Assembly: GCA_024679065.1 (NCBI GenBank)
Contig: JAGIQG010000031.1
Location: 2,356,001 to 2,420,000 of the forward strand
Origin: Sphyrna mokarran
Lineage: Eukaryota
Direction of reading: 5' to 3'
DNA length: 64,000 bases
Numbering within the stretch: the first letter of the stretch is position 1; every line of letters starts with the position of its first letter. The notes below the pieces were generated by a model. That model did not search any database. It saw nothing but the letters and a program-made list of their open reading frames with translations, and was not told the origin of the DNA. Below, in pieces: positions 2,651-32,372 of this stretch. The position numbers and the translations under genes were made by a program.

Positions 2651-5600
2651 CTGTGGATTGAAGTTTGAGATTTCACCTTGAATAATTTCTTAATTTGAAT
2701 ACTTAGTCATTAATTAGGGTTGTGCGGTAGCACAGTGGTTAGCACTGCTACCTCACAGCTCCGGGGACCTGATTCGATTCCTGGCGTGGGTCACTGTCAC
2801 AGTTTGCACATTCTCCCTGTGTCTGTCTGGGTTTCGTCCAGATGCTCCAGTTGCCTCCCACATTCTAAGGATATGCAGGACAGATTGTTGGCCGTGCTAA
2901 GTTCACCTTTAGTGTCCCGGAAAGCATAGGTTAAGGGGATTAACGGAACAAATATGCGGTGTTGCCGGGATAGGGTCCAGGTGAGATTTCTTTTCATGCA
3001 GATTTGATGAGCTGAATAGATTCCTCTGTGCTGTTGCGATTATATGATTCCAGACATATAGGAAACCAACTATCATTCAATGTATCAGTAGCACAGCACT
3101 TCAATTGTCCCCTCCATTCATAGAGCCATAGAATCTCTACAATGCAGAAGAACGCCATTCGGCTCATCGAGTCTGCATGGACAGTAATCCGATCCAAGCC
3201 CCATTCCCGTGACTCCACGCATTTATCCTGCTAATCCCCCTGACATTAGGATCAATTTAACATGGCCATTCTACCTAAATTGCATATCTTTGGAGGAAAC
3301 TGGAGCACCGAGGAAACCCACGCAGACACGGGGAGAACGTGCAGACGCCACACAGACAGTGACCCGAGACTGGAATTGAACCATGTCCCTGGAGTTGTGA
3401 GGCAGAAGTGCTAACCACTGTGCCATCGTGCCACAGTGAGGAAAAAATCCAAAGAAGGCTCCAAAATTCATCAGTGTTCCCCAAATATCCAAATTGGAAC
3501 TCAATACACCACTTGTCAAGAAATAATTTATGGACAGCAATTTGCCACTGTATGAGCCTCCCCAACATGTATGTCTTCCACTGACCCTCTGGTATATTGT
3601 TGGCAACATGGGTCCAACGGAAAAGAGATTTAATGAATAATCTATCTTATGACAGAAAATGTCTTTATCAGCCTGTGAATTCATCGCATTTGATATTTAA
3701 TCTGTGACAGCATTTCAAAGCAACATACCTGTTTTCCATTTTTTCTGTACCCGCCGTGATGTTGTCTCTGTGAACCTAAAACCCAATAAGGACAGAATGC
3801 ATTCAGATGTCGTGCTAAGCCTAACCCGAATGTCAGAAATTGGTTTAGAAAATTATTTTCGAACAGTTTTAGACTCAGTCCATAAATATCATGGCTAATA
3901 CCAAAGCATAACATTGGGAATTGTGTGAAACGAGATTTCTCACAGTGTTAAATACTGAGAGGGTGACTTTTGCAAATGGTTATGTTACTCACTTTCCATT
4001 GTGGATTTCCTTGCCATGTTCTCCTGAAAGAAGAAACTGTGGTTAACAATATTAAACAACATAATGAGAATCACTTTGAACAAACAATATCGCCATTGTC
4101 AATTCTAAACATTAACTCTCACCTGATTTGTCTGTTTTGCAAACCCATATGGACAAAGGGATGAAGAGGAGAACCAGAATCACCAGGACAATTATGACAA
4201 TGAGATGTTTCACACTGCACCACCCTGAAGAGAGAAAACATTGAGAAAATCTGCTGGGTCAATGTTATTAAACAGAGGAAGGTTCCCCCTCCCCATACCT
4301 CCCCCCTCCATTGAGAACTAATGCAGAACACTGAAAGAGAAATATCTTGCTTCATTATCTGTAAAAGTGAGGTGAATTTTTGTGAAGTTTTGATTTAATT
4401 TTCGACAGTATTTAGTGCTTACATCAACATGCCTAACACTCTTGAAAATCAGCAAGTAATGATTTATTTAACTAACAAGCAGTGAAGAATTTAACAAAAC
4501 TATTAACAAACAGAATAAAATCCGATTCTAATGGAATGCTGTTCAGATGACTAGAATTCCCGCTTATTAAAAAAAAAAACTAGAATTTAATCTCTATCTA
4601 AATTACAATCAGGTTTGGTGTTTTCTGGAATATGTTCTGTTTTGTCTATTCATTCGCTTGTCTGAAACTTCTGTCGTCTTTGGTGCCCTTTCTACTGACA
4701 TGAAAATTTCCCTTGCGGCATGGATGAGGCAAATGTGAGTTGCTTTCCTAGTTATTTTCCCTCTGACACATTTTTATACCTGCGATGACACCCCCTGCAA
4801 GTACCAGATTGCCAAAACCATCAAATTTAAATCTAACAGGTTGCCGGTATGCAAATACTTGACTTAGAGTGTTTGGCAGAATTTTAAATAAATTAAAAGC
4901 CTTTTTGTTTTTTTGGCAACATTGCTGCCTGGCTCTTCGATCAAAAAATAATTTTCATTCAGAGACCCCTTATAGTCCAGCATGTTTTTTTTAAACTTTC
5001 TAAGCATAGACAAGAACACCAACCTTTTAAGAGAATAATGTGATGCTTTCTAGTTAGCATTTTACATTTATAAAAATAATTTTACACACACCAATTTCTA
5101 GCATTCTAATTCTCAATCTAAAATTAATCTATTGAACCTCACAACAATCAGATAACTATTTTCTTGGACTCACAATTGGTAAGCATTTCCAATTTAAATG
5201 TTGGTATCTGAAACTCGAGTATGAAACTGGAAATAAATTTCAAGTGATAATGAAATGCGAAAGCAAATATTGGAATAAACAGCATTCGATAGTTCAGATG
5301 AATTTTCAGACAGCTCTGTCAGAATGGTTTCTCGTTCAGAGTGCATCAGTTTGAATGTTGAACGCAATATAGAACATAGAACACAGAACGGAGAACACGA
5401 CCACACAAACAGGCCCTTCGGTACACAAGTTGCGCCGAACATATCCGTATCTACCAGGCCATAGAATTATCTGTAATCCCCAAACCCATTAAATCCCATG
5501 TACTCATCCTTTAAAAGACCTCAACGAATTCGTCTCCACCACCACTGATGGCAGCCACTCACTCACCACCCTCTGAGTGAAAAAAAAACATACCCCTGAC

Positions 5601-8600
5601 ATGTCCTCTGTACCTGCTCCCAGCACCTTAAACCTGCGTCCTCTCGTAACAACGATTTCAGCCATGGGAAGTAGCCTCCGAGAGTCCACCCGAGCGATAC
5701 TTCTCAATATCTTATAAACCTCTATCAGGTTGTATCTCAATCTTCGTCTCTCCAGGGAGAGAAGACCTAGTTCCCTCAACCGATCCTGTTAAGGCATGCC
5801 TCCCAATCCAGGCAACATCCTTGTAAATCTCCTCTGCACCCTCTCAATAGCTTCTACCACCTTCCTGTAGTGAGGCGACCAGAATTATGTGAACGTTTAT
5901 TTGGAAAGACATTCGTGGAGTGGAAGAAACGGACTGTATTGGTCTTGGCTTTTTGCACGGGCGTCCATCATTGTCCCTAAATTAGTCTTCCCTCAATCTT
6001 CCCCATTAGGCGTAGACAAAGGTCATAGGTGGACGAGGGCGCTCACAATGTTAAAATGGCAGCGCGGGCTCATTGGGCCGAAGGGACTGTTTCCCGTCCT
6101 GTATTGTTCTTTGTTCTTTGTTCATTTTGTGATATCTCAGATGGCCTTGCCCACTTTTCCCTTTTATGCAATACCGCTTGTGAAAATGATTAGCAAAAAT
6201 GCTCCCCTCGCCCTCTCATATGTGTTACAGATCACAAAGAACAAGAACAACAAAGAACAAAGAGCAACACAGCACGGGAAACAGGCCCTTCGGCCCAACG
6301 AGCCCACGCCGCCATCCTAACGTCTTAATGACATATCCTTGACTTTAGGCTATGCCTATTGTTGAAGATTCCCATATAGGGACCAATATAGGGACAATTT
6401 GTTACCCAATCAGCCTAACAGCACATTTTTGGGATGTGGGAGGAAACCGGAGCACCTGGAGGGAACCCACGCAACCACGGGGAGAACGCGCAAACTCCTG
6501 CAGACACAGGTCCAAATCCATGTGTCAGCACAGCAACAGCGATAGTCTCTGAGCTGTCATGTTGCCCATCAGATGTGTGAAAATACACCTTTGTGTGAAA
6601 AACTGGCCTCTAATATTCGTCTTATACATAGCCCCCCCCACCCTGTGTCTGTGACCCCTCGTTCTATCCATTTCTAATGGTGGAAAAAGCTTACCACCAT
6701 TTACTCTATCTATACCCCTCATAATCTTATATACCTCTAAAAGATCCCCTCTCAGCCGACGTCTTTCAAGGGAAAACAACCCCAGTGTTTTCAATCTTTC
6801 CTCGTAAGACAGCCCTACCATACCAGGCAGCATCCTGGTAAATCTCCTCTGCACTCTCTCCAGGGCCTCTACATCCTTCCTGTAGTACGGCGACCAGAAC
6901 AGGACGCAGTACTCCAGATGAGGCCAAACCAACGTTCTATACACCTGCAACATCAGACTCCTACTCTTGTATTCTAAACCCTTTCCTATGAAGGCTAACA
7001 TACCATACGCTTTTTTTTATCACATTCTCCACCTTTACTGACACCTTCAGAGACTTGTGAACTTGCACCCCCAGGTCTCTCTGCATCTCTATACAAAGTT
7101 CACAGCATAACAAAAAATCTCCTCATCTTACCACTTTTTTTGTAAATTTTCTTCAATGTGTGTCTGTTTCCTTACTGATCTGCCACTGGTCATCTTTTTT
7201 TTTTAATTTTGCTTAATCAATCTCGCGATGATATTAAGCACGTACACTTCTCTGTTGGAAGGAGAACAACCTATTTTCCTTCGGTATTCCGACATTGACT
7301 GAAGTGGTCCAAGACCATTAATTCCACTCTGCACCCTCTCTCCATCCTTCTCATTCTTCCCCCCAAAAGTGGTAAATTGAACTGTCGACCACCCTGCAAA
7401 TTTGACTGTGACCTTTTAGCATAAAATAACTCCCCTTGCTTGTGGACTCGATCACGCAGTTGTATACATCCAGGGTCTATTTATCTTTTAACAACACTTT
7501 CAGTTTACCTGTCCACCTCCAACAATAAATGAAACAAAAAACGATTAAAGCACAATATGAGGCCATTCAGCCCATTGTGTTGTTGTTCTCTCTGCCTTTT
7601 CTCGTCAACCAACAATTGCTTCCTTTTCGGATCACTCCCCATTTCCCTTTCAAATCTGCCATTGTACTGCCTCAGCCTCAGACAGTGCGTTCCACATGAC
7701 AAACATTATCTCAACAGAAGTCTCCTTCATCATTTGCTGCTTATTTCTGTGCTAATCCCAACAGATTTCTGCCTTCTGATTCTATACGTTTTGATCACAC
7801 TACTCCAGATGAGGCCTAACTATGGTTCTGTGTAACTGCCCTGTCACCTGCCCGTTTTTAAACTCAATGCACCAACCTATGAAGGCAAGCATGACGTAGC
7901 CTTCTTGACCACCTTATCCATTTGCTTTACCACTTTCAGTGATCACTGGACATGTGCGCCCAAGTATATCTGCCCGCCAGTAATCCTAAGGGTTCTACCA
8001 TATACTGTATGATACCTACATGCATCGGGTCTTCCAAAATGCATAATCTCATATTTGTCCAGATTAAAATCCATCTGCCACTTTTCTGCACAAGTCTTCA
8101 ACCAGTTTATATCTTCCTGTATCCTCGGATAATCCTCTCCTGCAACACCATCATTTTTTGTGAAAACTGCAAACTTATTATTCAGATCAGTTTTCTCCAA
8201 GTTCGTCCAAATTTTCCCCTGAGTACATAGAACATAGAAGATAGAACACTACAGCACAAACAGGCCCTTCGGCCCACAAGTTGTGCCGAACACATCAAAA
8301 CCTACCCAGCCATAGACCTATCTATAACCCCCAATCCCATTGGATCCCATATACTCATCCAGAAGTCTTTTAAAAGACCCCAGCGAGTTCGCCTCGACCA
8401 CCACCGATGGCAGCCGATTCCATTCACTCACCACCCTCTGAGTGAAAAACTTTCCCCTAGCATCCCCTCTGTACTTGCTTCCCTGCACCTTAAATCTGTG
8501 CCCTCTCGTCGCGACCATTTCAGCCCTGGGAAATAGTCTCTGAGAGTCCACCCTATCTATTCCTCTCAACATCTTGTAAACCTCTATCAGGTCGCCTCTC

Positions 8601-10131
8601 AACCTTCGTCTCTTCAGGGAGAACAGTCCCAGCTCCCTCAACCTGTCTTCATAAGGCATGCCTCCCAATCCAGGCAACATTCTTGTAAATCTCCTCTGCA
8701 CCCTTTCAATAGCTTCCACGTCCTTCCTATAGTGAGGCGACCAGAACTGCGCACAGTACTCCAAGTGTGGTCTGACAAGGGTCCTATAAAGCTGCAGCAT
8801 TACCTCCTGACTCCTGAACTCAATCCCTCGATGAATGAAGGCCAGTACACCGGAAGCTTTCTTAACCACATCCTCCACCTGGGAGGCCGATTTGTGAGTC
8901 TTATGGACCCGGACCCCAAGATCCCTCTGCTCTTCCACACAACTAAGACTCCTACCTTTGATAGTGTACTTTATGTAAACTACGAACAACAAAAGTCCAG
9001 AACTGATCCTTGGAAGTCATCAACTCACCTGTGCCAGTCACTACTGCTTTGGGGGATGACACACTTTTTGTCCAATATTTCCCTGGGGTCCCCAGTTGAA
9101 CAATACAAGTACAGACACCACCACTTCTCCAGGTTTCTCTCGACACTGTGATGTGACTTCTGATGCTGTATGTCCCGTCATCCTCTTTTGTCCCGGGATC
9201 GCTCCATCCCTGGGCGACAAGACCCGAAATATTCCAGAAAATAGCAATGTGGTTGGAAGAGACTTTACTGACCAAACACACTAAGGGGACGGTGTCATTG
9301 GAATCCAGCTCACCCGGCGGGACAAATACCAGCACATCCGTGTTGTTGGTGGAACTATCTGGATAATGATTTAGACACAGTTAGTGATACAATTCACACA
9401 CAATGTTAATGCTGTGGACAATCCGAGTTCATTTTTCTTGCTCTCTTACCTCCAACCAGCAGTGTCGCCGCTTTCTGGAGAGGTGCATAGCTAGCTATGC
9501 GTGCACAGTAGTAGGTGCTTGAATCATTCACTTGGAGATTTCGAATTTCCAGAATCAATATATTTTCCTGATTCCCTTTTTTAGAAATAAACTTACAATC
9601 ATCCCCAGGACAGGATTTAGTATCGATTGGTATTGGCGCTTCGCCCACATATTGTTTGAACCAAGCATAGCTAGACACCAATTCCACGTCGTAACTGAAG
9701 TGACAGAATAATTCCGTCTTCTCGCCGACTCCAGCTGTGATTGCGAAGGGACTCTCAGACAGGGAAGAACAGAATTCTGCAAATAGAGAGATTATTGTTA
9801 TCTAAAAACTGATTACCTGGAATGATCACCTAGCTCTTTTAATTTAGAAATAAAATATTCGTCTGGAATATAATAAAAACCTCTTTATTGACCATAATCA
9901 TTGTTGGCTAGATTTATTCTTCAATTTTACTTTTCGGGCGGAAATAGAAATTAATGTCAGTCGATCAGGTCAAATACCTCACGTGATTACAAGGTCACAT
10001 TTTCGCCTGGGCAAAATTTCTGCCTGGCTGATTACCATTTAAAATAATTCCAATGAAAATTATTGTTGTGTCTTACCATAACCCCAAAACACTTGGAAAA
10101 TCATTATCAGTGATAATGATGGGTTGGCCAT
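2449..10131 (-). CDS. Gene A: non-rearranging V(J)-C1-TM-cytoplasmic IgSF receptor (PRARP/VJ-C1-like), about 307 aa; exons 10077-10131, 9450-9776, 9029-9358, 4123-4224, 3729-3775, tentatively 2601-2650 and 2449-2461
   Basis: Five exons join with canonical GT/AG and matching phases (1,1,1,1,0) into an open frame: leader, V-set, C1-set, TM and cytoplasmic exon. The last two exons are tentative. Confidence 0.85.
2718..3051 (+). mobile_element. tRNA-derived V-SINE (HE1-like)
   Basis: Head gcacagtggttagcactgctacctcacagc, central gtttgcacattctccctgtgtctg, CR1-like tail. Confidence 0.85.
3120..3433 (-). mobile_element. tRNA-derived V-SINE (HE1-like), inverted relative to 2718-3051
   Basis: ggaaacccacgcagacacggggagaacgtgca...gctaaccactgtgcca on the + strand. 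Confidence 0.85.
3729..3775 (-). CDS. Gene A exon 5, cytoplasmic GSQRQHHGGYRKNGKQ
   Basis: Acceptor ttttag, donor CAG|GTATGT, phase 1 to 0 like the equivalent exon of gene B. Confidence 0.7.
4123..4224 (-). CDS. Gene A exon 4, stalk Cys plus transmembrane: GWCSVKHLIVIIVLVILVLLFIPLSIWVCKTDKS
   Basis: Strong polypyrimidine acceptor (ttttctctcttcag), donor G|GTGAGA, 102 nt phase 1-1, about 20 hydrophobic residues. Confidence 0.88.
5367..5885 (-). mobile_element. CR1 LINE 3' fragment
   Basis: ORF LSLERRRLR...FFTQRVV and (TTCTATG)n-type tail. Confidence 0.9.
6232..7090 (-). mobile_element. CR1 LINE 3' fragment with SINE-like segment in its 3'UTR
   Basis: ORF 6525-7001 (PHLEYCV.FWSP) and (TTCTTTG)n tail. 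Confidence 0.9.
7790..8975 (-). mobile_element. Two CR1 fragments (decayed 7790-8175; younger 3' end 8225-8975)
   Basis: ORFs 7943-8200 and 8318-8992 are CR1 RT C-terminal sequence; tail at about 8225-8260. Confidence 0.9.
9029..9358 (-). CDS. Gene A exon 3, C1-set Ig domain
   Basis: Acceptor ccag, donor G|GTGAGT, 330 nt. VLVFVPP...PLVCLV...IFWNIS...DDGTYSIRSHITVSRETWRSGGVCTCIVQ is an Ig/TCR constant-type pattern. Confidence 0.95.
9450..9776 (-). CDS. Gene A exon 2, V-set Ig domain with fused degenerate J-like G strand
   Basis: Acceptor tttgcag, donor G|GTAAGA, 327 nt. EFCSSLSESPFAITAGVGEKTELFCHFSYDVELVSSYAWFKQ...LEIRNLQVNDSSTYYCARIASYAPLQKAATLLVG has the B-strand Cys, WFKQ and DSSTYYC. Confidence 0.95.
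10077..10131 (-). CDS. Gene A exon 1, signal peptide MANPSLSLIMIFQVFWGY
   Basis: ATG at 10131, 55 nt hydrophobic leader, phase-1 donor G|GTAAGA, in frame with the V exon. Confidence 0.85.
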
Positions 10132-13100
10132 AGTCACACAGGCAAGAGCCCCCTTTTGTTGCTGTCACTCAGTTGTTACTGCAGATGGAGTGGCCGCAGA
10201 CTGACCTGCGCTCAGTCCCAGTGACTTGTTACCCTTTCAGTTGCCGTGCTATCTATGAGCTGTGCTGTGGAAAGTATGACACCCTCTGTGTACGTGCCCT
10301 GCTGAATGCAACATTAATTTTGCACAATGTGGTCAACCTCGGCGTGTCAGAGTGTCATACAGAGCAGAATTTCTATAAATAAACTTAAATGGGTGCAGTT
10401 CAGGGAAGACGACAGAACAAAAGTGGATGGGTGAATACTGCAGATACAGCTTAATTCAAGAGTCTCCATCGACAATTGTCGCTGTGAATCCATTTTAAAA
10501 AAATGATCGCGTCGTCCCTCAGCCTTCAGTTTTTTCTTTACCGGAGACCAATCTGTTCACCCATTTTTTAAATTATTTTTAATATGTCTCAGCCCTATTA
10601 TAGGTCGTGAATTATTGTGTATGCATTTTGTCCGTGCTTCAATGCCCTCTTTGTACAACAAGGACCGGACGTGTGCGCATTTCTTCCAATTATTTAAAGC
10701 TGGTTCCAATAAGCAACAAAAAAAACTGATGAATATTAGAATGCCATTCCTTTATGGGTTTCTTTTGTGTGTTTCTGATGAATATCACGAACACATTCAA
10801 CAAATGTGATCTCACTCTTGAAATTATTGACACTGTGTATAAACACAATGTATGAATGCAACACGTGAAAATGTTAAAATATTTATTAGTCACCAACAGG
10901 CTTACATTCATACAGCAATGAAGTAACTGTGGAAGTTCCCTGGTCACTCCTTAAGATGAAATTAGGGAGATAGTCATATCCGATAAAGGACTCGAAATAA
11001 ATTAGTTTGTTTTCACAAAATGATTAAAAAGGAAACTGGTACAGTTTTTCTATCCTCGAATGCCCATTTTATTTACTATGATGTGTTTATAGCTTTATAG
11101 ATCGTCCAGAACGCGCGGTCTCTCTTTAATCCGTTTCTATTTAGATTCAGAATCGTGATCAGACTCCAAAGGACTGCAGTCGAGTGAGTTTCCGCATTGT
11201 AAATAACACAAAACACAATCGTCTTATATTCCCCGTTACTAACCTATTAAAAATGTTTTCCCATTGAAGAATGGACATGATTTAAAAAAATGCTAAAGCC
11301 TCGATTGCAAACACGGAACGCATGAGGGGGATTTTCACTTGTCTGTCATCAGTTAGTTTGAACAGTAATTGATGTTTTGGTAGGTCGAATTTCCCAGAGA
11401 AATGGATAAGTTTCCCCTAACGAGCCAGTCGGGATTCAATTAAAATATTCCTCCCAGAAGATTAAACACTTTATGGAAACAGAAAATTTCTTGATTAATA
11501 ATGACAAACTACATCACAGGAAATAAAGTGGACAGTGGAGAGTAGCAGGAAAAAATGAACCAGGTGTCTTTGTATCGTTTTATAAAAAGCAAAGGATAAC
11601 TAATATACAGCGATTCATTCAGGGATATAACTATCGTTTGTCCATCTCTAATTTCACCTGAAGGAGGTGGCCAGGCGACTTTCATAGTAACTTCCTTGTT
11701 GTGTGAATGTAAGCCCACTTGTGACGAATAAATACACTTTAATTTGATCAGGAGCTGCATTCTTGACCACAATTATCCACAACTTATCGATAATGCAACA
11801 ATGCTTTTAGGGTGGCAGTTCCAGGATTTTGACCTTGCGACAACACAGAAACAATGATGGTGTCAAATAAAGTGTCTGCACGGTGAGGACAGCAGTTGCA
11901 GGATCTGGTGCACCTTTACGCCTTATTCTATCGCCACATTCTTCCAGAAGATGTTAGACTTTCTGTGGCATTGTCGTGTCTAGCACAAATGGATATTACA
12001 CTGTGCCATTCCACTAAGCCAGTGATGAAAGGATTGTGGTATTACGAATAATATGGGCTTCACTTTTATTCAAGTTCTGGACACGGCAGTCATATTGTTA
12101 CCCAGTATTACATCGATTAGTAGACTAGAACCAGCTTAGTTATACACCAGTCTATTCTCTGCTTGGTTGAGTGCATCTGAGGCTGTAAAACCTCTCATTA
12201 TTTTACCGGTGAGGAAAGTTGTCTACATGAAGCGCCTTAACTGCAAAAACAACAATGCCAATGAAAGCTTCAAACATCATTTTCCATCTCAAGCAGAAAG
12301 TTGTGAAGTGGTCACAATCTGGTTCAACAATTTCCACTCGTCAGCGCATTTTGCACGGTCCCAAATGGGCTGTGGTAGCAATATGTTGACGTTTACAGCA
12401 AAGAGCCGCGGTCACAGACAAAGCTGCCGAGCCCCGCTTTCTGCTGCAAGCTTTAGTGAATAGCTGCGACTATTTTAGAAACTGCAGAGCACGGATTCTT
12501 CCGGCATTGAGTTGATAATTGGCTCATTTGAATAAATTGTGTAAAGAATCTTTTTAGCCAGTGGCAGTGTCTAATTGTCAGTGTCGTTTATTTTAACCAT
12601 TTGCTCCAACTGCCGTGATGATCGGGGACCTGTGCTTGATTCTGTTTGGGATTTGATTCCGTGCAGAACCTGAATGGGTGAGCAGCGGTGTTAAGCTGTG
12701 GTATTTGATGGACTGGTTTTATTACCTGGCATCACGTTGAATCACCAATTGCAGTTTCTTATTTCAGAAAACAGAATGAACTGAACAGATGAAGCAAAAC
12801 AAGTAAGTAAACCTTTCTGTAAAGCTCATTATTGACACCCTCACTGCATGTAAAATTGTTTCAAAACTCTACCCCGTCCCAGCTCCCCCCTGCCCACCCA
12901 AAGCCATTCCCATGTATAGGCGTTTTAATATTTCAAAAATTATTTCCGATTTATTTTCGGATAAATTAATATTTCAAAACGTTATCTTCTTCCAATGTGA
13001 GAAGTTTGAATGGTCACATGAAGTAGAGCAGCAACAGGCCACTCGGCCCTCCATCATGCTTCACCATTTGATATGATTATGGCAAATATTACGTTTTCTC

Positions 13101-14289
13101 CACTTAATTCCATTTTGAATCAAAAAATCTCCCTAAATCTTTCATAAATGTATTCATTGACCCATCCCATATGATTTATATGTATGATAATTTCGAACAC
13201 GACTGACCCTCAGAGTGATTGAATTCATCACTCTCCAAGTAGTAACAGCGTTCAGCAGTTGTGGACTCGTCATGTTTAAGGGCGTTCAAATGGGCAGTGG
13301 ATAGGCATATGAATAGCATTGGAATAGATTAGGATAGAGGGTCATAAAATTGGTTCCATTGGTCTGCGCAACATCGCGGGCTGAAGGGCCTGTACTGCGC
13401 TGTAATGTTCTATGTTCTAATTAAGCGCTGAAATTTCCACCCCTTCTTCCAGATATTCGAGGAAGAATCCTGTGTTAGTGTCGTCCAAATTGTTTGAATA
13501 CATTAACAAGCAGAATCAAGCTGTCCAGCCGCTCGACTCAGCTCCATTATTAATAGGATCATGACTGAACTGGTGATAACCCAAATTCTGCATCCCACTT
13601 AACAAAGGTAACGTATCAACTTCTCTAAATTCGCAAATCTCTCTTTTAACAGTTTCACTCCATTTTCAGGAAGCGAGTTCGAAAGACTCACAACGATCTG
13701 AGATAATAAAAATCCTCATTTCCATTTTCATCGGCGTTACATTAGTATTAAATGATGGTCACACGCGAATAATCATCCTTTCAACACACATTCACGGAAG
13801 AATCTTGACGATATTATTTGCTTCATTCAAGTAGCCTTCTGAACTGCAGTGGATTCGGACGCAACCAGCCCAATATTTACCCATAAGATAAAGTGGGCAT
13901 TATATTAAACGTCAATATTTATCTGTTTGGAACTTACCTAGCGGAAACATAGCATGCTTAGTTTTGTAAACGACTCCGCTCTCAATACATGATAACATTA
14001 TATTTGATGGCCTAATTGTTTGCTGCAAAATCATTTAGCATTTATTTGAATCATGCACCGTGACAATCAGATACTCTGTGCTCCTTAGTGGTCTGCAATC
14101 TCTTACCGTTTGGTAACATTCTTTTTAACACGCCCTACCACAATCAACAATTTCACATTTCCACCACATTGAGCTCAAATTTCCAGTTCCGTGGTTTGCC
14201 TGCCTACGTATTCAGCTTCCATAATATAATTCCGAATATAATTCCCTATGCATCTGTGCATAATCATAAAATGTGACAAACATCGTTTT

Positions 14290-14780
14290 ATTAGAAAGAG
14301 TGCAGAAAAGATTTTACTTCAACATCATCAGGACTTAATGGCTTTGAACTAAAAGGAGAGGCTGGATAGGCTGGGACATTTTTTTTTTCCGTGGAGCCCA
14401 GAAGACTCCACAGTGATCTTGTAGAGACCTATAAAGTAATAAGGGGCACAGATCTGCTCGATCATCAATACATTTTCCGGAAGATAAAGGAATCTAAATC
14501 TAAAACTAGAGCCCATAAGTTTAAGGTGAGAACTACAAAAGCGTCCAGAGGGACAATTTTTCACATAGATGGTGGCGAATGTCTGGAACAAGCTGCCAGA
14601 GGTAGTTGTAGAGTTGGGAACAATTTTATCTTTTAAAAGGCATTTTCATAGTTAGATGAGTAAAATTGGTACAGAGGGATATGGGATAAATGCAGGCAAT
14701 TGGGATTAGCTTAGAGTTTAAATAAAAGGCAGGATGGACAAATTGAGCTGGGGGGGCCTGTTTCCATGCTCTATGGCTCT
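14290..14780 (+). mobile_element. CR1 3' fragment (further short 3' fragments at about 13250-13418 and 15560-15775)
   Basis: RRLHSDLVETYK-type ORF and CR1 3'UTR. Confidence 0.75.
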
Positions 14781-18085: not shown

Positions 18086-18099
18086 CACCTAACTTATGC

Positions 18100-20750: not shown

Positions 20751-20779
20751 TACTTCTGCTGTCCATATCCCGCAATAAC

Positions 20780-21720
20780 TTGTAGACTTCTATCAGATCG
20801 CCCCTCAACTTCTGGTGAGAACAAACCAAGTCTCTCCAAACTCTCCCCATAGCTTGCGCTATCCATTCCAGGCAATATCCTGGTAAATCTTTTTCTGTAA
20901 CTTCTCCAAAGCCTCCACATCCTTCTGTTGTGTGGCCTAAACATGTTTCTATAAAACTGAAACATGATTTGCCAATTTTCAAATTCAATGCTCTGGCCGC
21001 TGAAGGCAAGAAAGCCTCCTTAACTACCTTGGAACATTACAGCGCAGAACAGGCCCTTTGGCCCTCGATGTTGCGCCGACCTTCTCTATCTGCTTTGCCA
21101 CTCTCAGTAACCTACGTACCTCAATGCCCAAATCTCTCTGCCTATCAATCCTCCTAAGCGTTCTGCACTTTACTGTATATTTCATATCCGTATTAGACCT
21201 TCCAAAATGCATTACCTTACATTTGTCTGAATTAAACTCCATCTACCATCTCTCCCCCAAGTCGCCAACCAATCGATATCCTGTTGTATCCCCAAATGGT
21301 TGTCATCGATTTCCACAAATCCACCAACCTTTGTGTCATCCACAAACACTCTAATCAAACCAATTACATTTTCCTCCAAATGATTTAATCATAACACTGA
21401 TCCCTGAGGAACTCCACTTGTCAGAGCCCTCTATTCAGAAATGCATCTTTCCACTGCTACCCTCCGCCTTCTATGAACGAGCTAGTTCTGTATCTACCTT
21501 GCCAGCTCACTTCTGATCCCGTGTGACTTCACCTTCTGCACTAGTCTGTTATGAGAAACTTTGTCAAGGGCGTTACTGGAGTCCACGTAGACAACCTCAT
21601 CAATCATCTACCCTCATCAATCATATTTGGCACTTCCTCGAAAAACTTGATCATTTCAGTGAGGCACAAACTACCTTTCATAAAACCATCTTGCCTCTCG
21701 CTATTACTTCTTCCAAACAG
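20780..21720 (-). mobile_element. Decayed CR1 ORF2 fragment
   Basis: MEFNSDKCKVMHFG and GFMKGSLCLT motifs. Confidence 0.8.
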
Positions 21721-21799
21721 AGAATTATAAAATGCTAACAGGATTGACAGGTTAGATGTAGCAAGGTTCATCCTGGATAATTCAAGTGGCATCATATGA

Positions 21800-22050
21800 T
21801 TGTCTATTAATACAGAAACTCAGCTCATATTTTGAGGACCCATTTCTAAACGCCGCCACAGCAGACGACAGAATTTGAATGCAAACAACAAAATCTGGAA
21901 ATAAGAATATATTGATGACCATGAAATCATTGTCGATTGTCAGAGAAAACTCATTTGGTTCACTGGTGTCCTTTTTGGAAGAAAGGATGCCATCCTTACC
22001 TCATCTGCCCTATCTGTGACTTCAGTTCCACAACTCTATGTCTAATTCGC
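21800..22050 (+). mobile_element. Deu-type SINE remnant (also at about 63520-63720)
   Basis: aatctggaa...gatgaccatgaaatcattgtcgattgtc...ggttcactggtgtcc; the same motif recurs elsewhere in the window. Confidence 0.55.
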
Positions 22051-22159
22051 AGTGACATCAATAAGTGTGTACACATGACTGCCTTCTGGACTTTGAGCGT
22101 TCCACCTACACTGAGAACACAAGTGATAAAGGTTGTTAAACTGAGTGCTATGCAACTTA

Positions 22160-25100
22160 TAGAAAATAGAACATAGAACACTACAGCGCAGCACAGGCCC
22201 TTCAGCCCTCGATGTTGCACCAACCAGTGGAACCAATCTAATGACCCTCGAACCTAAACTATTCCAATGTTATCCATATGCCTATCCACTGCCCATTTGA
22301 ACGCCCTTAAACTTGACGAGCTCACAACTGCTGCAGGCAGGGCATTCCACGCCCTTACTACCCTCTGAGTAAAGAACCCACCTCTAGCACCTCTCCTATA
22401 ACTACCACCCCTTAATTTAAAGCTATGTCCCCTCGTGTTATCCATCTCCATCCGAGGAAAATGGCTCTCACTATCCACCCTATCTAACCCTCTGATCATC
22501 TTATATGCCTCACTCAAGTCACCTCTTAGCCTTCTTCTCTCTAATGAGAATAACTTCAAGTCCCTTAGCCTTTCCTCATAAGGCCTACCCATCATACTAG
22601 GCAACATCCTGGTAAACCTCATCTGCACCCTTTCAATTGCCTCCACATCTTTCTTATAATGTGGCGACCAAAACTGTACACAATACTCCAAATGCGGCTG
22701 CACAGAGTTTTGTACAGTTGCAACACGACATCTCGGTTTTGAAATTCAATCCCTCTACCAATAAATGCTGACACATTATACGCCTTCTTAACAACCTTAT
22801 CAACTTCAGTACCAACTTTCAGAGATCGATGCATCTGTACACCGAGATCTCTCTGTTCATCTACAGTATTAAGAATCCTACCATTAGCCCTAAATTCTGC
22901 ACACATATTACTCTTACCAAAGTGAATCACCTCACACTTTTCCACATTAAACTCTATTTGCCGCTTCTTGGCCCAGCTCTGCAACTTATCTATGTCCCTC
23001 TGCAAACTGCAACATCCATCCTCACTGTCTACCACTCCTCCAACTTTGGTGTCATCAGCAAATTTACTAACCCATCCCTCTACACCCTCATCCAGGTCAT
23101 TTATAAAAATAAGAAACAACAGTGGCCCCAAAACAGATCCCTGAGGTACACCACGAGTAACTAAACTCCAGGTTGAATATGAACCATCAACCACCACCCT
23201 CTATCGGCTAGCCAATTCCTAATCCAAATTGCTAAATCTCCCTCAATCTCATGCATCTGCATTTTCTGCAATAGTCTTCCATGGAGAACCTTATCAAACG
23301 CTTTGCTAAAATCCATATACACCACATCGACTGCCATACCATTATCCATCTCTTTGGTCACCTTTTCAAAAAACTCAATAAGGTTTGTGAGGCACGACTT
23401 TCCCTTCACAAATCCATGTTGACTATCCCTAATCAATTCATTTCTTTCTAGATGACAATAAATCCTATCCCTTATTATTCTTTCCAAAACTTTCTCCACA
23501 ACAGATGTAAAGCTTACTGGTCTATAATTTGCAGGATGGTCTCTGCTCCCCTTCTTAAACAAGGGGACAACATTTGCCATCCTCCGGTCTTCCGGCACTG
23601 CACCTGTAGCCAACAACGACATGAAGATCAACGCCAAAGGCTCTGCAATCTGCTCTCTAGCCTCCCAGAGTAACCTGGGACAAATCTCATCCGGCCCAGG
23701 ATATTTATCTATTTTCATACTCTCAAGAATAGCTAACACCACCTCCTTATGTACCTCTATCCTGTCTAGTCTACAACCCTGTATCCCGTATTCTCCCCAA
23801 CTCCATTGACATGTTCCAGCGTGAAGACCGACGAAAAATATTCATTCAGTTCCTCACCAATCTCTACAGGCTCCACCCACAAATTCCAACTACTGTCTCT
23901 GACAGGCCCTAATCTTGATCTAACCAATGTTTTTTTCTTAACATATCTATAAAAAGCTTTAGGGTTCTCTTTTATCCTATCCACCAAAATTTTCTCATGT
24001 CCTCTTCTAGCTCTTCTTATCTCCATCTTTAGCTCCCTCCTGGCTAATTTATAACTGTCCACTGCCCTAACAGAGTCTCCACGTCTTGTCTTTATATAAG
24101 CCTCTTTTTTCCTCTTCACTAATGAACTAACTTCCTAAGTACACCACGGTTCCCTGGCTCTACCACTTCCTCCCTCCCTGACATGTACATCTTTATCAAG
24201 GACTCGCAGCAGGTGTTCCTTGAATAAGTCCACATTTCAGGTGTTCCCAGCCCCTGCAGTTTCCTACTCCACCCTATGTATCCTAAATCTCGCATAATAG
24301 CCTCAGAATTACCTTCCCCAGCTGTAACTTCTTCCCTTCGGTATATGTCTATCCCTTTCCATTACTAAGGTAAACGTAACCGAATTGTGGTCACTATCAC
24401 CAAAGTGCTCACCTACCTCCAAGTCTAACACCTGGTCTGGTTCATTACTCAGAACCAAATCCAATGATTGCAAAGTTAAAGTCCCCCATAACAAACTACC
24501 CTCTTACTTTCACTTCTGTCCAGAATCAGCCTTGCAATCTTTTCCTCCATATCCCTGAAAGTTTTTGGAGGCCTACAAAAAACTCCCAACAGGGTGACCT
24601 CTCCTCTGCTGTTTCTAGTCTCAGCCCAAACTACCTCAATAAAGAGGTCCACATCAAATATCCTTTCTGCCATCATAATACAGTTTTTGAGTAACAATGC
24701 CACACCTCCCCCTCTTCTACCACCTACTCTGCTCCGACTGTAACATCTGTACCCTGGAACGTGCAACATCCATTCTTGTCCCTGCTCTATCCAAGTCTCT
24801 GAAATGGCCACAACAACGAAGTCCCAGGCACCTATCCAGGCTGCAAGTTCGCCCACCTTATTGCGTTTGCTCCTCGCATTGAAGTATACACACTTCAAAC
24901 CACCCTCCCACCTACCAGTACCCTGCTGAGACCCAGAAACCTTACCCATGACCTCGATATTCTCATTCTCCTGTACATTTGAGCTACTCAGGGCCCCAAC
25001 CCCCCTCTGAATCAGTTTAGAACCCGGATAGCACTGGCAAATCCCCCCCCCCCCCAGATATTAGTTCCCTTCTGGTTCAGGTGCAGACCATCCCTCTTTT

Positions 25101-25195
25101 AGAGGTCGCACCTACCCCAGAAAGAACCCCAATTGTCCAAGTATCTGAACCTTTCTCTCCTGCACCACCCCTTTAGCCACGAGTTTAAATTTCTT
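22160..25195 (-). mobile_element. CR1 LINE, nearly complete ORF2 (APE endonuclease + RT) with frameshifts and one internal deletion
   Basis: ORFs 24476-24949 (YFNARS, ISETW), 23161-23742, 22619-23197 (GVPQGSVLGP, KFADDTK), 22254-22703 and tail. Confidence 0.95.
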
Positions 25196-25199
25196 TAAA

Positions 25200-25478
25200 T
25201 ATCTTTCAGATGAGATTTCAGCAAACGTTTCAGACATGCAGAGAATCAGTTGCTACCTGTTACAGTTTGCAGACAGCTATGTGCGTAGGCAGTCCACGTG
25301 AAACAGGAAACTCACTGAGACCATTTGCATTGTGCTGAAGTTTCCACTCAGCTACGTGTTTTTCAGTGCAGCATCGAGTTTCCGCATTTGGGTATTTCAA
25401 ATCGTCACGTCGTTACGACTCTGGATTTAGATCCATGCGGACAAGAGTCAGGTTTGAAGCCCACATTAAGGATCCGAG
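25200..25478 (+). promoter_or_regulatory. Gene B promoter: octamer ATTTGCAT 25323-25330, IRF-Ets composite GAAACAGGAA 25300-25309, E-box CACGTG 25295-25300, half-CRE CGTCA 25403-25407
   Basis: Motifs read directly, clustered 70-185 bp upstream of the leader ATG in a unique island between two LINEs. Function is inferred. Confidence 0.6.
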
Positions 25479-25530
25479 ATGCAGATTATGGGCCTCCTGG
25501 CTCTCGGTGCCCTCTTCCCTCTCCTTCCAG
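25479..25530 (+). CDS. Gene B exon 1, signal peptide MQIMGLLALGALFPLLP
   Basis: ATG at 25479 (alternative 25488), hydrophobic, phase-1 donor CAG|GTGAGA, continues as VVFSQAVFTQ in the V exon. Confidence 0.85.
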
Positions 25531-28500
25531 GTGAGATTAGCTTTTTCTTTCTAATGTATTTGAATCATCGATAGTCACGGCTGAAGTGCCTGAAGATTCG
25601 CGAGTGGCAAATGCTGTTTCTTTGATTGAAAAAGGGTGCAGGGAAAAGTTTGAAATCACAGGCCAGTGAATCTCACATTTGTGATGTGTAAGGTGATGCT
25701 GAATATTTCGAAACACGAGATCTACAAGCATTTAGAGAAGCAAGGTCTAATTAGTGAGAGTCAGCATGATTTTGTGAGTGGAAAATCAAGCCTCACAAAT
25801 TTGAGTGAGTTCGTTGAAAGCATATCAAAAGGTCGATGACGGCAGTGCAGTTTATGTAGTCTACATGGATTATGGAAAGGCCTTGAACAAGCTATCACAT
25901 GGTAGGTTATTGTATAAAGTTAAATTTCACGAGATCTAGTGTGAGCTAACAAATGGATGCAAGATAATTTTCTTGCCAAAAGCCAGAGGGTGATTGTAGT
26001 GGGTTGTCATTCAAACTGAAGGCCTGTGACCAGCGGTGTGCCTCAGGGATCAGTGCCGTGTCCACTGTTATTTGTCAATTATATTCATGATTGGGATAGA
26101 ACATAGGACGCATGTTTAGTAAGTTTGCAAATGACACAAAGCTTGGTGACAAAGTGGAGAGTGAAGAAAGTTATCTCCGATTGCAACAGGATCTTAATCA
26201 ATTGGACCAGTGGGCTGATGAATGGCAGATGGAGTTTAATTTAGATAAATACGAGGTGACTCTTTTTAATAGCCTGAACCAGGACAGAACTGACTCAATT
26301 AATGGCATGGCACTGGGGAAAGTTACAGCTCAAGGAAAGCTAGCGGTAAATGTTCATAGCTCCTTGAAAGTGGAGTCACAGATGGACAGAGTGGAAAAGA
26401 AGGCATTCGACATGCTTGGTTTCATTGGTCAGAACATTGAATACAGGAATTGGGACGTCTTGTTGAAGTTGCACAAGACATTGGTAAGACCACACTTGGA
26501 TACTGTACTCAGTTCTGGTCACCCTATTGTGGAAAGAATATTATTAAACCAGAAAGAGTGCAGAAAAAGATTTACTTAGAATGCTACCAGACATTGATGA
26601 TTTGAGTTTCTTAGGAAAGAATGGAAAGACTGAGACATTTTTTTCTCTCTGGAGTGTAGAAGGCTAAGGTGTGATTTTCAGAGTTCTATAAAATAATGAA
26701 GAGCACAGATCAAACTGACAGTCAATATATTTTCTCAGAGATAAGGGAGTCTAAAACGAGAGGGCTTTGTTTTAAGCTGAGAGGGAAGATATACAATAGT
26801 ATCCAGAGGGACAATCTATTCACAAAAAGTTGGTGAGTGTCTGCAACAAACTGCCAGAGCTAGTAGTAGGGGCTAGTACAATTTTGCCTTTTAAAAAGCA
26901 ATTAGACAGTTTATGGATGAGATGGGTATAGAGGGATATTGGCCAAATGTGGGCAACAGAGATTAATTTAGGTGTCTAAAAGAAAGGACGGCATGCTGTA
27001 AACCTCTATGACTCTACGAGTCTATAGCATGGGAGACAAACCGGCTCAGGTCATCGGCAAGCTTATGCATGTGGCAGATCACACTGACAAATCTGAAGCA
27101 AAGTTTAAGAAGTGAGTAATGAAAATGTCAAATAAAATACAGTGAACAAACATTCACATCTCTTCACCACGATTATACACAGATCATGCAATTGTTTTCT
27201 TGATTCTGAGTTCACTCCTCCCATCAAAAGAACTTCAATTTCTGATGTTGTCACATTATTTTTGTGGAATTTTGCTGGTGAAAAATTCTTCGCTGCATTT
27301 TTTTTGCAATACAAGAGGTACTGTACTTGCAAAAGTATTTCATTTTGACTATCTTTTGACCTCTCTCCTTCCCTTATCTTTACATTCGTTTATTTAATCT
27401 CTGGGGTCCTCCTCTCTGTTGCTCTCTCTCTCTATTCTTTTATCTCTCTTTTGATTTCTTTCATATGTTTTTCTTTTTTTTATGTGTGGTCTATTTCTCC
27501 AATGTTCTTTGTCTCTTCTTTGGACACAGGTGAGGTACCAGAGGACTGGAGACTAGCTAATGTTGTATCCTTTTTTAAAAAGGGTACTAGGGATAACCCT
27601 GGAAATTATAGGCTGGTGAGATTGACGTCAATGGTTGGGAAGCTGTTGGAGGGGATTCTTAGAGATTGGATATGCTCGTAGGGATACGCTCGCCCTTCAT
27701 TGTCCGTTTTTGTCGCCTCCTCGAAAAATTCTACCAGATTTGTAAGGCACGACCTCCCTTTAACAAAGCCATGCTGCGTATCCCTAATCAGATATTAACC
27801 AAAATATTAATTCAATCTTGTACCCATAAGGAAGTTAGGATAAGTTTTTTTTTGTACTGGGAATCATTAACCTCCCGGCGATAGGCGAAACTCTCCATTT
27901 GTATTGTTGTGGGAAAGTTATCACCGGAGCCAGACTGGCGGTATCAAGAATACGGATTTTTATTTTGGATACGAAGCTTCGGGAGAAAGCGCTGGTACTC
28001 AACAGTGCTTAGCAACTACCTAGGAGCCGCAGCATCATGTTGCAGCTGTACAAAACTCTAGTGCGGCCGCACTTGGAGTATTGTGTGCAGTTCTGGTCGC
28101 CACATTATAAGAAAGATGTGGAGGCATTGGAGAGGGTACAGAGGAGGTTTACTAGGATGTTGCCTGGTATGGAGGGCAGGTCCTATGAAGAGAGGTTGAA
28201 GGATTTGAGGTTGTTTTCGTTAGAAAGGAGGCGGCTAAGGGGGGATCTTATTGAAGCATATAAGATAATTAGAGGTTTGGATAGGGTGGACAGTGATAGC
28301 CTTTTTCCTAGGATGGAGAAAGCTAGCACGAGGGGACACAACTTTAAATTAAGGGGTATGAGTTATAGGACGGATATCAGAGGTAGGTTCTTTACTCAAA
28401 GAGTGATTAGGGAGTGGAATGCCCTGCCTGCAGCTGTTGTAGATGCGCCAAGTTTGGTGGCGTTTAAGAGGTTAGTTGATAAGTATATGGATGAGAAGGG

Positions 28501-31500
28501 AATGGTTTAGTTAGGAGGGGCATTGCTTTTTATTTTGGTCGGCACAACATCGAAGGCCGAAGGGCCTGTTCTGTGCTGTATTGTTCTATGTTCTATGTAC
28601 CTTCTCAATCATACAATAACAGTTGATCATTTTCATACCTTTCAGATAATAGGTAGTCTGGACATTTGTCATTGAACACATCGTTATGTTTGAGTAGACA
28701 ATTTATGGTGATTGCAAGTTAACACGTCGTTACAATCTGACAGGTACAGACATAAACAATTAATATAGCATTGTTCATGGAATGGATGTATTTCCTCTAC
28801 CAATGACTGGTTTTGATCTGTGCGTTCAGTGGTTGAGTTTTGTTTCATTTATACATTTATTTTCCCATCGAGGGCTGATCCTATTATCAGTCTCTATTGT
28901 TCTGTGTTGTCCTTATCTTCAAAATGTCCCAAGCTCTAACGAGCTTTCTGCAGCATTTCGGTTTCTGCTTGTTTTAACTTTAACTGGACTGCCTTTGCTA
29001 AAAGCAAGGGCCTGTCTGATGTCTCCTGCCCGGTAACTATTATGTGTGTCAGGCAACCATTTCTTTATTTTCTCCACTTCAGTATGAATCAGGTTTGGCT
29101 ATTGCTCACAAAAGGGGAAGAGAGGTTGAAGGATTTGAGGTTGTTTTCGTTAGAAAGGAGGCGGCTAAGAGGGGATCTTATTGAAGCATATAAGATGATT
29201 AGAGGTTTAGATAGGGTGGACAGTGATAGCCTTTTTCCTAGGATGGAGAAAGCTAGCACGAGGGGACACAGCTTTAAATTAAGGGGTATGAGTTATAGGA
29301 CGGATATCAGAGGTAGGTTCTTTACTCAAAGAGTGATTAGGGAGTGGAATGCCCTGCCTGCAGCTGTTGTAGATGCGCCAAGTTTGGTGGCGTTTAAGAG
29401 GTTAATTGATAAGTATATGGAAGAGAAGGGTATGGTTTAGTTTGGAGGGGCATTGCTTTTTATTTTGGTCGGCACAACATCGAAGGCCGAAGGGCCTGTT
29501 CTGTGCTGTATTGTTCTATGTTCTATGTTCTGTTGATATGCCCTGTTCTCTCTCAGTTGTTTTCTCCCAGGCGGTTTTCACGCAAACTCCAGCGATCCAA
29601 ACCGTCTCGGCTGGAAGTCGCTTTGAGCTGCATTGTCACACAGGCTGGTTAGCAAGTCCAGCGGTTTACTGGTATAAACAGCGGCACCATCAACATCTGC
29701 AGTTTGTTCATATCGTCAAAAAACACTTCCCTAGTGAAGGGCGGTTTTCAGGAGTTGTTAACGACGATTCGACCGTTTGTACTCTGATCGTTGAAGGTGC
29801 CCAGAAGGAGGATTCGGGTGTTTATTACTGTGCAGCAAGGAAATCTAACGGGATGCCCTTTATATTCGGAAAGGGCTCAAAGTTGTTCATCACTGGTAAA
29901 TAAAAGTAAAAATAAGTGAATTAAACAATTAAAGAAATACGAATCGAAACTGAAAATTAATTTCATTTTCCCTAACCAGGTCGCCCGACAATATTCCTCT
30001 TGGCTCCGCCGCCGGCTGAGATTCTGTCCATGGAAATTATCCCATTGATGTGTTTGGTGAGGGGCGTAACCTCGGTTACTCTCCCTGTCCACTGGAATGT
30101 TTCCACAGGGGAGACAGAGGGATGGACGGATTCTGGAACAATAGAGTCCATCGGGATGTACAGTATTAGAAGTCAGCTCACAGTCCCCAGAGAAAGCTGC
30201 AGCAAGGGGGCTGTTTGTACTTGTTCCGTTCACACCCCTTCAGTTGAAAATCTCATAAGCGAAATGTTCTCACGTCAGAGAGGTGAGCGTTTGCAAATTC
30301 ACTTTATGTATTGCTGTCGTGAGATCCGTTGTGAGCAATAGTGCATTTAAAGCAAAAGTTGTTCACTTTTCTGCGTCTGGATGCAGGCATCATGCGAACA
30401 ATTATTCATTTAGATGAGAAAACTGAATTTAGTATCTTTAACTTCAATGATGATTCAAAGCTTAGTGGGAAGGTGAGTTTAAAGGACGGTGCAGATATGC
30501 ATCCGTGTGATTTAGACAAGTTCAGTGAGTGTGCAACTGCATGGCAAATGCGGATAACTGAGAGATTATTCACTTTTTTTAGCGACAGCGGAACAAAGAT
30601 TATTCAGACAGATACACGTTTAAACAGAGACATAAGATCATAAGAAATAAGAGCAGGAGTAGGCTTTCTAGCACTTCGAGCCTGTCCCACCATTCAATAT
30701 GACCATGGCTGATCTGAAGTGGATCAGTTCCACTCTCCCGCCTGTTCCTCATAATTCTTAATTCCTTATCGATCAGAAACACATCAACCCGTGATCTTAA
30801 ATATATTCAGCGAAGTAGCCATCACCACTTCAATGGGCAGAGAATTCCAGAGATTGACCACCCTCTAAGAGAAGAAGTTCCTCTTCAACTCTGTTCTAAA
30901 CTGCTCTCCCCTTCTCCCCCCCCCCCCCCCCCCCCCCGCTATTTTGAGGCTATGCCCTCTGGTTCTGGTTTCCCTTCTAAATGGAAATAATCTCTCCATT
31001 TCTACCCGATTTAGCCCCTTCATTGTCTAGTAGGTCTGTATCAGATTCCCCCTCACCCTTCCAAGCTCCAACGAGTACAGGCCCAATCTACTCAGTCTCC
31101 CCTCAAAAACTAATCCCATCCAAGCAATGGGATAGAGGTGGGATCGAGCAAAGAATCGATGAACAATTGAAAAATGTATTGCCTCCTTCTATGCAATTGG
31201 ATACTTTGCCAATAATAATATTCTTTCATTACATTGCTGTTATCACTCATAAGGCTCCCCGTCACCCCAACTGTTATGTTGGTGTAATTGGGAAAAGTGG
31301 TTTTGACACATTCAATTTTGAGTTGACTGTTCGTGGGTGTCCTTGAAATTTGGGCATGTGCACGGTGGCCTGACTGAAATAATTCTTCAAAGTTATTTTT
31401 CCCCCTTCATCAGATCCACGAGAACCATTCTGCAATTCACTGCTTTATGGCGGTTCCTCGGTAATAATTGTCCTTTTCATGATATTTGCTATTCTGGCGG

Positions 31501-32372
31501 GTTGGAACTGCAAACATCGGCTCTCAGGTAGGATGTGTCTGCCTGCTCTATCGTTCTGTGCGGCTCAGCATCCCCATAAATTTGTTGATGTATCTTGCTC
31601 ATCTACACAATAATTAACCTGCTCTCTGAACACGTTGCAATGTTTCAGTCTTTTTTTATTTGCTTTAGGCATCAAGACATCACGCAACGTATTCGCGAAT
31701 TCGATGTATTGTGAACAAAATGAGACGGTAAATAGTATTTATTAATATAAGTTGTTCAATTGCTCTGACTTTTGAGAACAACACTTCATATTGATTGTGA
31801 AGGTTACTAGATTCTATTAAACGTTTCAATGTATTATTTACCATTTTACGGCAAATGAAAATGCTGTACTACATAGGTATGGACAATTAATCTCAGAAAA
31901 TAGAGATGAAGACAAAATGTCATTCAAATTAAACAGTGCGGGGTTCAAATGGAATTGGATTATGAGAAAAGATGGCAAAGATGTCACCAATATCCCCGTG
32001 TCTACTGAAGGCAAACATGTAAGATACAAGAAGGAGTATACTATTAATGAAAACGGATTGGCAAACAAGATTGAGGAAATTGCGAAGTTCTTTTATACAC
32101 AAGTAACAAGCAAGAGTTCAGCCAAGGAAATGATTGATCCACTGAACGATAGTAAAGGAAATTTTTGCGTGGAAGTCAAGAAAAATGTGCCAGATGTATT
32201 CACCAAATAGAAAGACTTGGTGGATAATGATCCTAGGACAGCTTGTGTAGATATTCTAGTTCATTTTGATACAAAACGGATGACGGATAGGGCGTCTTCA
32301 AATGTATTAAAGTAGACAAGTCCCCAGGGCCTGATGGGATATACAGCCTGATACTGAGCGTGGGGGAAGGGT

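Follow-up and report, generated by a model that had tools for sequence, protein, structure and literature searches.

The window analysed here is a 64,000-nucleotide stretch of the Sphyrna mokarran genome (2.77 Gb), G000:C894:2356001-2420000, and our subject is a pair of genes, called A (minus strand) and B (plus strand), which lie head to head in it with 15.4 kb between their ATG codons. Gene A has eight exons, encoding a leader, joined variable and joining segments (VJ), a C1-type constant domain (C1), a transmembrane (TM) segment and, in four exons, a cytoplasmic tail; its open frame comprises 339 residues. Gene B has six exons and an open frame of 300 residues. Every splice site in the two genes was canonical, and both frames were intact. 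The exons are given below in window positions, except for the last exon of A.

10077..10131, minus strand: gene A exon 1, leader, with ATG and GT donor; joint 10077/9776 seen in an RNA-type contig of a relative
9450..9776, minus strand: gene A exon 2, joined VJ, Pfam V-set; joint 9450/9358 seen in the RNA-type contig
9029..9358, minus strand: gene A exon 3, C1, Pfam C1-set; 80% to Mustelus model P0005
4123..4224, minus strand: gene A exon 4, stalk Cys240 (codon 4219-4217), uncharged TM, WVCK
3993..4023, minus strand: gene A exon 5, cytoplasmic; AG/GT, frame kept, matches the P0005 tail
3729..3775, minus strand: gene A exon 6, cytoplasmic
2601..2650, minus strand: gene A exon 7, cytoplasmic
G000:C894:2351134-2351057: gene A exon 8, PLYASL motif and stop, about 5 kb left of the window
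25488..25530, plus strand: gene B exon 1, leader; 13 of 14 residues match P0045
29557..29895, plus strand: gene B exon 2, joined VJ with FGKG, Pfam V-set
29980..30282, plus strand: gene B exon 3, C1, Pfam C1-set; 80% to P0045
31414..31527, plus strand: gene B exon 4, stalk Cys235 (codon 31431-31433), uncharged TM, WNCK
31669..31727, plus strand: gene B exon 5, cytoplasmic
38832..38876, plus strand: gene B exon 6, TLYAQL motif and stop

The two predicted proteins have 94 residues in common. Their nearest named relatives were shark models from Mustelus asterias, with about 75% identity over the full length; protein A was as long as P0005 (254 of 339 residues identical) and protein B as long as P0045 (226 of 300). 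A 729-nt contig from a relative's reads (two runs of one study, its RNA status being guessed) was about 92% alike and contained the joins 10077/9776 and 9450/9358, i.e., the predicted leader-V and V-C splices of A. Sites resembling a recombination signal sequence (RSS) were not found in 9359-10076 for the V exon of A or around the V exon of B. A and B are intact, non-rearranging VJ-C1-TM-tail genes.

A first-pass annotation of the window had proposed that the two products form a dimer through one extracellular Cys ahead of each membrane core, and this Cys was confirmed in both exons. Exon A (4224-4123, minus strand, 102 nt) and exon B (31414-31527, plus strand, 114 nt) are bounded by AG/GT in phase 1-1 and encode G-WCSVKHLIVIIVLVILVLLFIPLSIWVCKTDKS and D-PREPFCNSLLYGGSSVIIVLFMIFAILAGWNCKHRLS, respectively, each with a single Cys before the hydrophobic core. 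From Cys+4 to the Trp, neither core contains K, R, D or E; A has a His at Cys+5. In this genome, all 31 A-type TM exons and 35 of the 36 B-type ones encode the stalk Cys, counted with the window included and with one weak match and a mis-bounded exon on contig C868 dropped. Loss of the Cys in orthologues had been named as an observation that would count against the dimer. Among the homologue models with a TM segment (from 43 shark A, 14 shark B and 131 bony vertebrate models supplied), the Cys was kept in 33/33 shark A and 12/12 shark B models (45/45 from sharks and rays) and in 104/105 from bony vertebrates. The proposed dimer thus withstood this check. The conservation is beyond chance, and A and B very probably form a disulfide-linked dimer.

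In single-chain predicted models of the Mustelus orthologues, the stalk Cys lies at the start of the TM helix (H235-266 and H233-262). It is encoded in the TM exon and there is no separate connecting-peptide exon, whereas the interchain Cys of T-cell receptor (TCR) chains lies in such an exon; its position is closer to that in CD3-zeta and FcR-gamma than to the TCR connecting peptide. The ectodomains contain further non-canonical Cys residues (21, 74, 79 and 210 in A; 89, 201 and 207 in B); therefore, the stalk Cys is not the sole candidate for the interchain bond.

The first-pass annotation had also regarded W-x-C-K, at the inner edge of the membrane, as a motif shared by the two chains. In this genome, W-x-C-K occurred in 13 of 31 A exons (at most 15, as two were trimmed short) and in 1 of 36 B exons, namely the window's own; the homologue counts were 6/33 for shark A, 0/12 for shark B and 0/105 for bony vertebrates. 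We rejected it as a family motif on the B and bony vertebrate counts, and the match between WVCK and WNCK is largely coincidence. A Cys placed more loosely at the inner membrane edge was common (25/31 A and 31/36 B exons; 13/33, 8/12 and 89/105 of the homologues, respectively); therefore, a membrane-proximal Cys may be palmitoylated.

We then considered which chains would pair. Passages of PMC4968113 and PMC8382685 describe conserved contacts between heavy-chain (VH) and light-chain (VL) V domains, i.e., L-Gln38 with H-Gln39 and H-Leu45 against L-Pro44. In the window, both VJ exons encode Gln three residues after the Trp of the C strand (Trp+3), and nine residues after it (Trp+9) A has Pro and B has Leu; the A exon also has an extra Cys pair and is without FGxG. 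We take Trp+3 to be the L-Gln38/H-Gln39 position and Trp+9 to be the L-Pro44/H-Leu45 position, by established numbering. A shark kappa-like V domain has Pro at Trp+9 and one TCR V domain has Leu. Pro was found at Trp+9 in 24 of 25 parsed A paralogues (33 matches) and 29 of 35 A homologues. None of 34 B paralogues (39 matches) had it, the residues being Met in 24, Ile in 5 and Thr in 5, and Leu occupied the position in 20 of 25 B homologues. A carries a light-chain Pro44-type and B a heavy-chain Leu45-type interface residue, which are complementary. In tetrapods, 52 of 53 A sequences had Arg at Trp+3, and 63 of 64 B sequences had Glu (123 sequences, 6 of them unparsed), a swap shared by caecilian and alligator. 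Like charges would face each other at the Gln-Gln contact in homodimers of these chains, which would disfavour homodimers.

Alternatively, the stalk Cys could link A to A and B to B, and the two genes, duplicated together as one block, would encode independent receptors. A and B are symmetric with respect to the Cys, Gln at Trp+3 in both shark chains permits self-pairing, and UrIg2, a non-rearranging VJ-C1 protein of sharks, is a disulfide homodimer (PMC12227049). The products of the chicken PRARP pair reportedly form homodimers besides heterodimers. However, homodimers do not account well for the strict Pro in A against Leu or Met in B at Trp+9, for the facing like charges that tetrapod Arg and Glu would bring, or for the retention of both types together from sharks to reptiles. 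We regard homodimers as a rather unlikely arrangement and the A/B heterodimer as, quite probably, the main form.

The retention of both types was seen in the gene family. On contig C1027, 33 A-type and 39 B-type C1 exons matched between 0.6 and 2.85 Mb; for the analysis of gene order, two partial B matches were excluded, leaving 33 A and 37 B genes, and stretches of 10-20 kb were examined for 32 A and 37 B genes. This main cluster (G000:C1027:600000-2860000, loci L049-L128) comprises about 70 genes in which the A and B types alternate; several of these genes are interrupted by stops or frameshifts. Of 69 steps from one gene to the next, 51 switched between A and B, against a mean of 34.9 after shuffling (p = 8e-5). 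The window pair is located apart from the cluster, on C894, and identity between its B gene and the cluster B type is only about 40-45%. Three broken V fragments in the cluster (C1027:2101946, 2398386 and 2814185) are nearer to the window B type than to the cluster B type. At C1027:622639 and 631467-632185, an A-type V-C unit has no A-type TM exon within 19 kb and a B-type TM exon 9 kb downstream, possibly a chimeric or deleted gene.

Outside sharks, a profile search of protein representatives and a second search found homologues in lungfish, coelacanth, sturgeon, paddlefish, bichir, caecilian, newt, Xenopus, turtles, lizards and alligators (20 representatives named, the rest placed by tree), and no bird sequence was among the 120 of 174 matches listed. 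Both chain types, A and B, are found together in lineages from sharks to reptiles; they lie on records of equal length in alligator, caecilian, sterlet and turtles. In a tree of V and C domains (42 rows), shark B and bony vertebrate B grouped together against A and a third lineage (92/95). The third lineage (99/97; P0109, P0112, P0115, P0142 and P0161, from coelacanth, lungfish, sterlet and bichir) has a different extra Cys pattern in V and was absent among the shark rows. The A and B chain types are probably older than the split between sharks and bony fish, with moderate support. Several database isoforms (P0010, P0013, P0016, P0025, P0032 and others) skip the TM exon, which is in phase 1-1; therefore, soluble forms may exist.

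The tails of the window proteins, 72 residues in A and 38 in B, contain one YxxL each and end in GPLYASLDL (Tyr321) and TTLYAQLAF (Tyr289), respectively. Among models with a TM segment, YxxL/V/I was present in 23/33 shark A, 12/12 shark B and 83/105 bony vertebrate sequences. The motif is YxSL in shark A, of ILYAHL type in bony vertebrate A and TxYxxL/V in B. In A of rays, sevengill shark and bony vertebrates, it is a canonical immunoreceptor tyrosine-based inhibitory motif (ITIM; ILYASL, VLYASL and ILYAHL), and the B motif resembles an immunoreceptor tyrosine-based switch motif (ITSM; TEYAAV, TEYATL and TLYAxL).

Five shark A models from five species have an Arg in the TM segment at Cys+8 or +9, and none of them kept YxSL (0/5), whereas shark A models without the Arg kept it in 23/29 (Fisher p = 0.0017; 44 models, of which 10 were without a TM exon or unparsed; this p value is optimistic because the sequences are related, and automatic models may be cut short). 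The family thus contains sister forms with a basic TM residue and without the inhibitory motif, as paired receptor families do. In this genome, an A-type gene (C1027:2405745-2410213, L074; TM exon at 2409802) keeps its V and C exons open; its TM segment carries Arg at Cys+9 and is directly followed by a stop, and the gene is a candidate activating chain. A second A-type gene (C1027:2172818-2177750, L071) shares the Arg at Cys+9 and the stop directly behind the TM segment, and its C exon is frameshifted. Mid-TM Arg was also seen in five B-type TM exons (C1027:789465, 935664, 1709146, 1626399 and 2640339). As an activating mark in B paralogues it was unsupported, as three of the five keep the tyrosine motif and no last exon was found for the other two in the fetched stretch. 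The B-type exon at 2640339 is without the stalk Cys, and no V or C exon lies in the 8 kb upstream.

The absence of an adaptor-binding TM charge, which the first-pass annotation had claimed, holds for the window pair but not for the family as a whole, in which A-type relatives with TM Arg exist. These relatives are without the tyrosine motif, and the window pair is therefore likely to be the inhibitory form of a paired activating and inhibitory family. We consider an inhibitory output of the A/B receptor fairly likely. The tail motifs of such a dimer could instead be switch, activating (resembling a hemi-immunoreceptor tyrosine-based activation motif) or endocytic signals rather than phosphatase docks. 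This would suit the single tyrosine per chain, the residues at -2 in the window motifs (Pro in A, Thr in B) and the resemblance of TxYxxL/V to a SAP-binding ITSM. It would not suit the canonical [IVL]xYxxL in A of rays, sevengill shark and bony vertebrates, the lack of an acidic run ahead of the Tyr or the loss of the motif together with the gain of TM Arg, a pattern known from paired families with an inhibitory Tyr form. We think it unlikely that the tails act in this way.

Taken together, we estimate with a probability of about 0.6 that the A and B products form a disulfide-linked heterodimer of a PRARP-like family, with a predicted inhibitory function through one tyrosine motif per tail. 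The earlier idea of a TCR-shaped dimer signalling through its own tails is kept as to the conserved stalk Cys and the YxxL in each tail, and three further lines favour A/B; its W-x-C-K element fell away. In such a receptor, V(A) and V(B) would pack together in the way VL and VH do, with the stalk Cys residues of the two chains joined at the membrane surface. The paired loops, resembling complementarity-determining regions, would bind a ligand, most likely a cell-surface self or pathogen molecule. Upon ligation, a Src-family kinase would phosphorylate Tyr321 in the ITIM-like motif of A and Tyr289 in the ITSM-like motif of B; jointly, they would engage the two SH2 domains of SHP-1 or SHP-2. PD-1 has ITIM and ITSM in cis, whereas here they would act in trans across the chains; the joint binding of SHP-1/2 is proposed by analogy with PD-1 and Ly49-type receptors. 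Sister A chains with TM Arg and without the motif would act as activating receptors via FcR-gamma or CD3-zeta.

Several observations weigh against this reading. The Arg/Glu swap was mostly counted on turtles and represents about one event, the Gln common to both shark chains suits homodimers too, and FGxG is missing from most shark A copies (present in 5/33). The alternation along C1027 could be explained by block duplication alone, and near-identical copies, possibly assembly duplicates, may inflate it. The V+C tree does not recover A as a single clade (2 changes), and in the V tree A forms one side of a branch at only 80/76. Transcript-type support covers only the leader-V-C part of gene A. 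In the tails, PLYASL of window A is a non-canonical ITIM, with Pro at -2, and the window B motif is a non-canonical ITSM, with Leu at +3.

If the heterodimer is extended to the cluster, sharks may keep a germline combinatorial two-chain system, in which about 25 A and about 25 B distinct intact V domains pair in the manner of VL and VH, the A chain decides between inhibition and activation (ITIM or TM Arg), and the ITIM of one chain acts in trans with the ITSM of the other. We offer this as a tentative proposal that is less likely than not to be true. Immunoglobulin (Ig) and TCR genes are generally believed to descend from a non-rearranging VJ-C1 gene. If the combinatorial proposal is true, the light/heavy-type asymmetry of the V interface predates RAG rearrangement, and the family is a living model of a pre-RAG heterodimeric antigen receptor and a candidate natural killer (NK)-type receptor of sharks. 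The precursor candidates known from sharks, UrIg and UrIg2, are described as homodimers in PMC12227049. A two-chain Fv-like membrane family with inhibitory tails and activating sisters would show CD3-free signalling by a TCR-shaped heterodimer, and it would form a large germline receptor repertoire in sharks that is mislabelled in databases as Ig chains. Through the interface residues and the Arg/Glu swap, the heterodimer is open to a direct test. We found no published description of the shark cluster, the interface asymmetry, the Arg/Glu swap or the activating forms in a search that left most subscription journals outside, and the family gene ids that were tried did not occur in the supplements of PMC10751288 and PMC12227049 (term search).

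Positive selection was not detected among the distinct intact V exons (24 of A type, 25 of B type): pooled dN/dS (the ratio of nonsynonymous to synonymous rates) was 0.45-0.50 in the framework and 0.52-1.00 in the loops and never exceeded 1. Among neighbouring genes, 103 open reading frames from the flanks and the window gave no Pfam match; nicastrin and Pex19 lie on another contig, C446. Reading frames of CR1-type retroelements are abundant throughout the window. Several near-complete CR1-type copies (long interspersed nuclear elements) occupy 52700-62300 and 22200-29500, and some CR1-type copies sit between the leader and V exons of gene B and in the C-TM intron of gene A. About 60-65 kb to the right of the window, fragments resembling a retroviral envelope and RNase H by eye were seen at L043:5206-5745 and L043:910-1242, with no Pfam match.

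Predicted models of A/B-type chains fold as Ig light-chain/TCR-like V-C chains. Alternatively to the reading above, A and B could be germline-joined Ig light-chain or TCR genes, or single-chain receptors of SIRP or NITR type. NCBI names such as 'immunoglobulin kappa light chain-like' agree with this, the best fold matches of the predicted models were light chains and a TCR chain, and in the V tree the B V domains grouped with three shark TCR V rows (95/89). However, in the C1 tree (43 family rows), the family was set apart from eight shark Ig C domains (99/99), with deeper forks unresolved; the family trees contained no SIRP, NITR or TCR C rows. Light chains have neither a TM segment nor a tail, and the TM exons of A and B, with C domains outside the Ig clade, do not fit a germline-joined light chain. 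TCR chains have charged TM segments and short tails, whereas A and B have no RSS, uncharged TM cores and tails of 72 and 38 residues. SIRP, with a V and two C1 domains, differs from A and B with their one C1 and dimer Cys, and no SIRP entry was among the top matches listed. We consider an origin within these classes very improbable.

Compared with known systems, A and B resemble TCR alpha-beta and gamma-delta in having two V-J-C1-TM chain types, a membrane-proximal interchain Cys and Fv-type interface residues. They differ from TCR in that they have no RSS and do not rearrange, their TM segments offer CD3 no charged residue, their tails are long and bear a tyrosine motif, and the Cys is encoded in the TM exon. 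UrIg and UrIg2 (PMC12227049) share with them the occurrence in sharks, single-exon VJ, split leader, C1 domains and disulfide dimer; UrIg has three C domains and is secreted, and UrIg2 has 9-11 C domains and forms a homodimer through its A and G strands. A and B instead have one C1 per gene, which places them outside the UrIg/UrIg2 arrangement of VJ followed by at least three C1 domains, and they have two chain types, a multigene cluster and tyrosine tails.

The proposed A/B receptor would work like CD94/NKG2A-NKG2C, KIR, LILR and other paired receptors: it would be a disulfide heterodimer in which a single chain may determine the sign, and its family has inhibitory tyrosine-motif forms beside activating forms with a basic TM residue. 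PD-1 also has an ITIM plus an ITSM, whereas A and B have the motifs on separate chains. Paired receptors and PD-1 have different folds or domain types, and in the A/B family both chains are diversified. By analogy, the A/B pair may work like a paired NK-type receptor with TCR shape.

PRARP is named as a VJ gene in PMC10751288. PRARP and related VJ-C1 genes reportedly resemble A and B in carrying V and a J-like segment in one exon without RSS (FGKG in B and a degenerate J in A), in the order of C1, TM segment and ITIM/ITSM tail (each window motif being non-canonical at one position), and in the linkage of two gene types whose relatives extend to bony fish, amphibians and reptiles. The chicken PRARP pair was reportedly described by Fu et al. 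in 2019 as non-rearranging VJ(-C1) membrane genes with an ITIM or ITSM tail, whose products form both homo- and heterodimers linked by disulfide bonds and which have relatives among bony fish, amphibians and reptiles; the VJC1 genes of Xenopus were reportedly described by Ohta et al. in 2019. Compared with PRARP, the shark copies keep a full C1 and comprise about 70 alternating genes and Arg-bearing, short-tailed forms. By its reported features, chicken PRARP is the closest known system; if the reported result is right, the dimer that the first-pass annotation proposed has already been shown in chicken.

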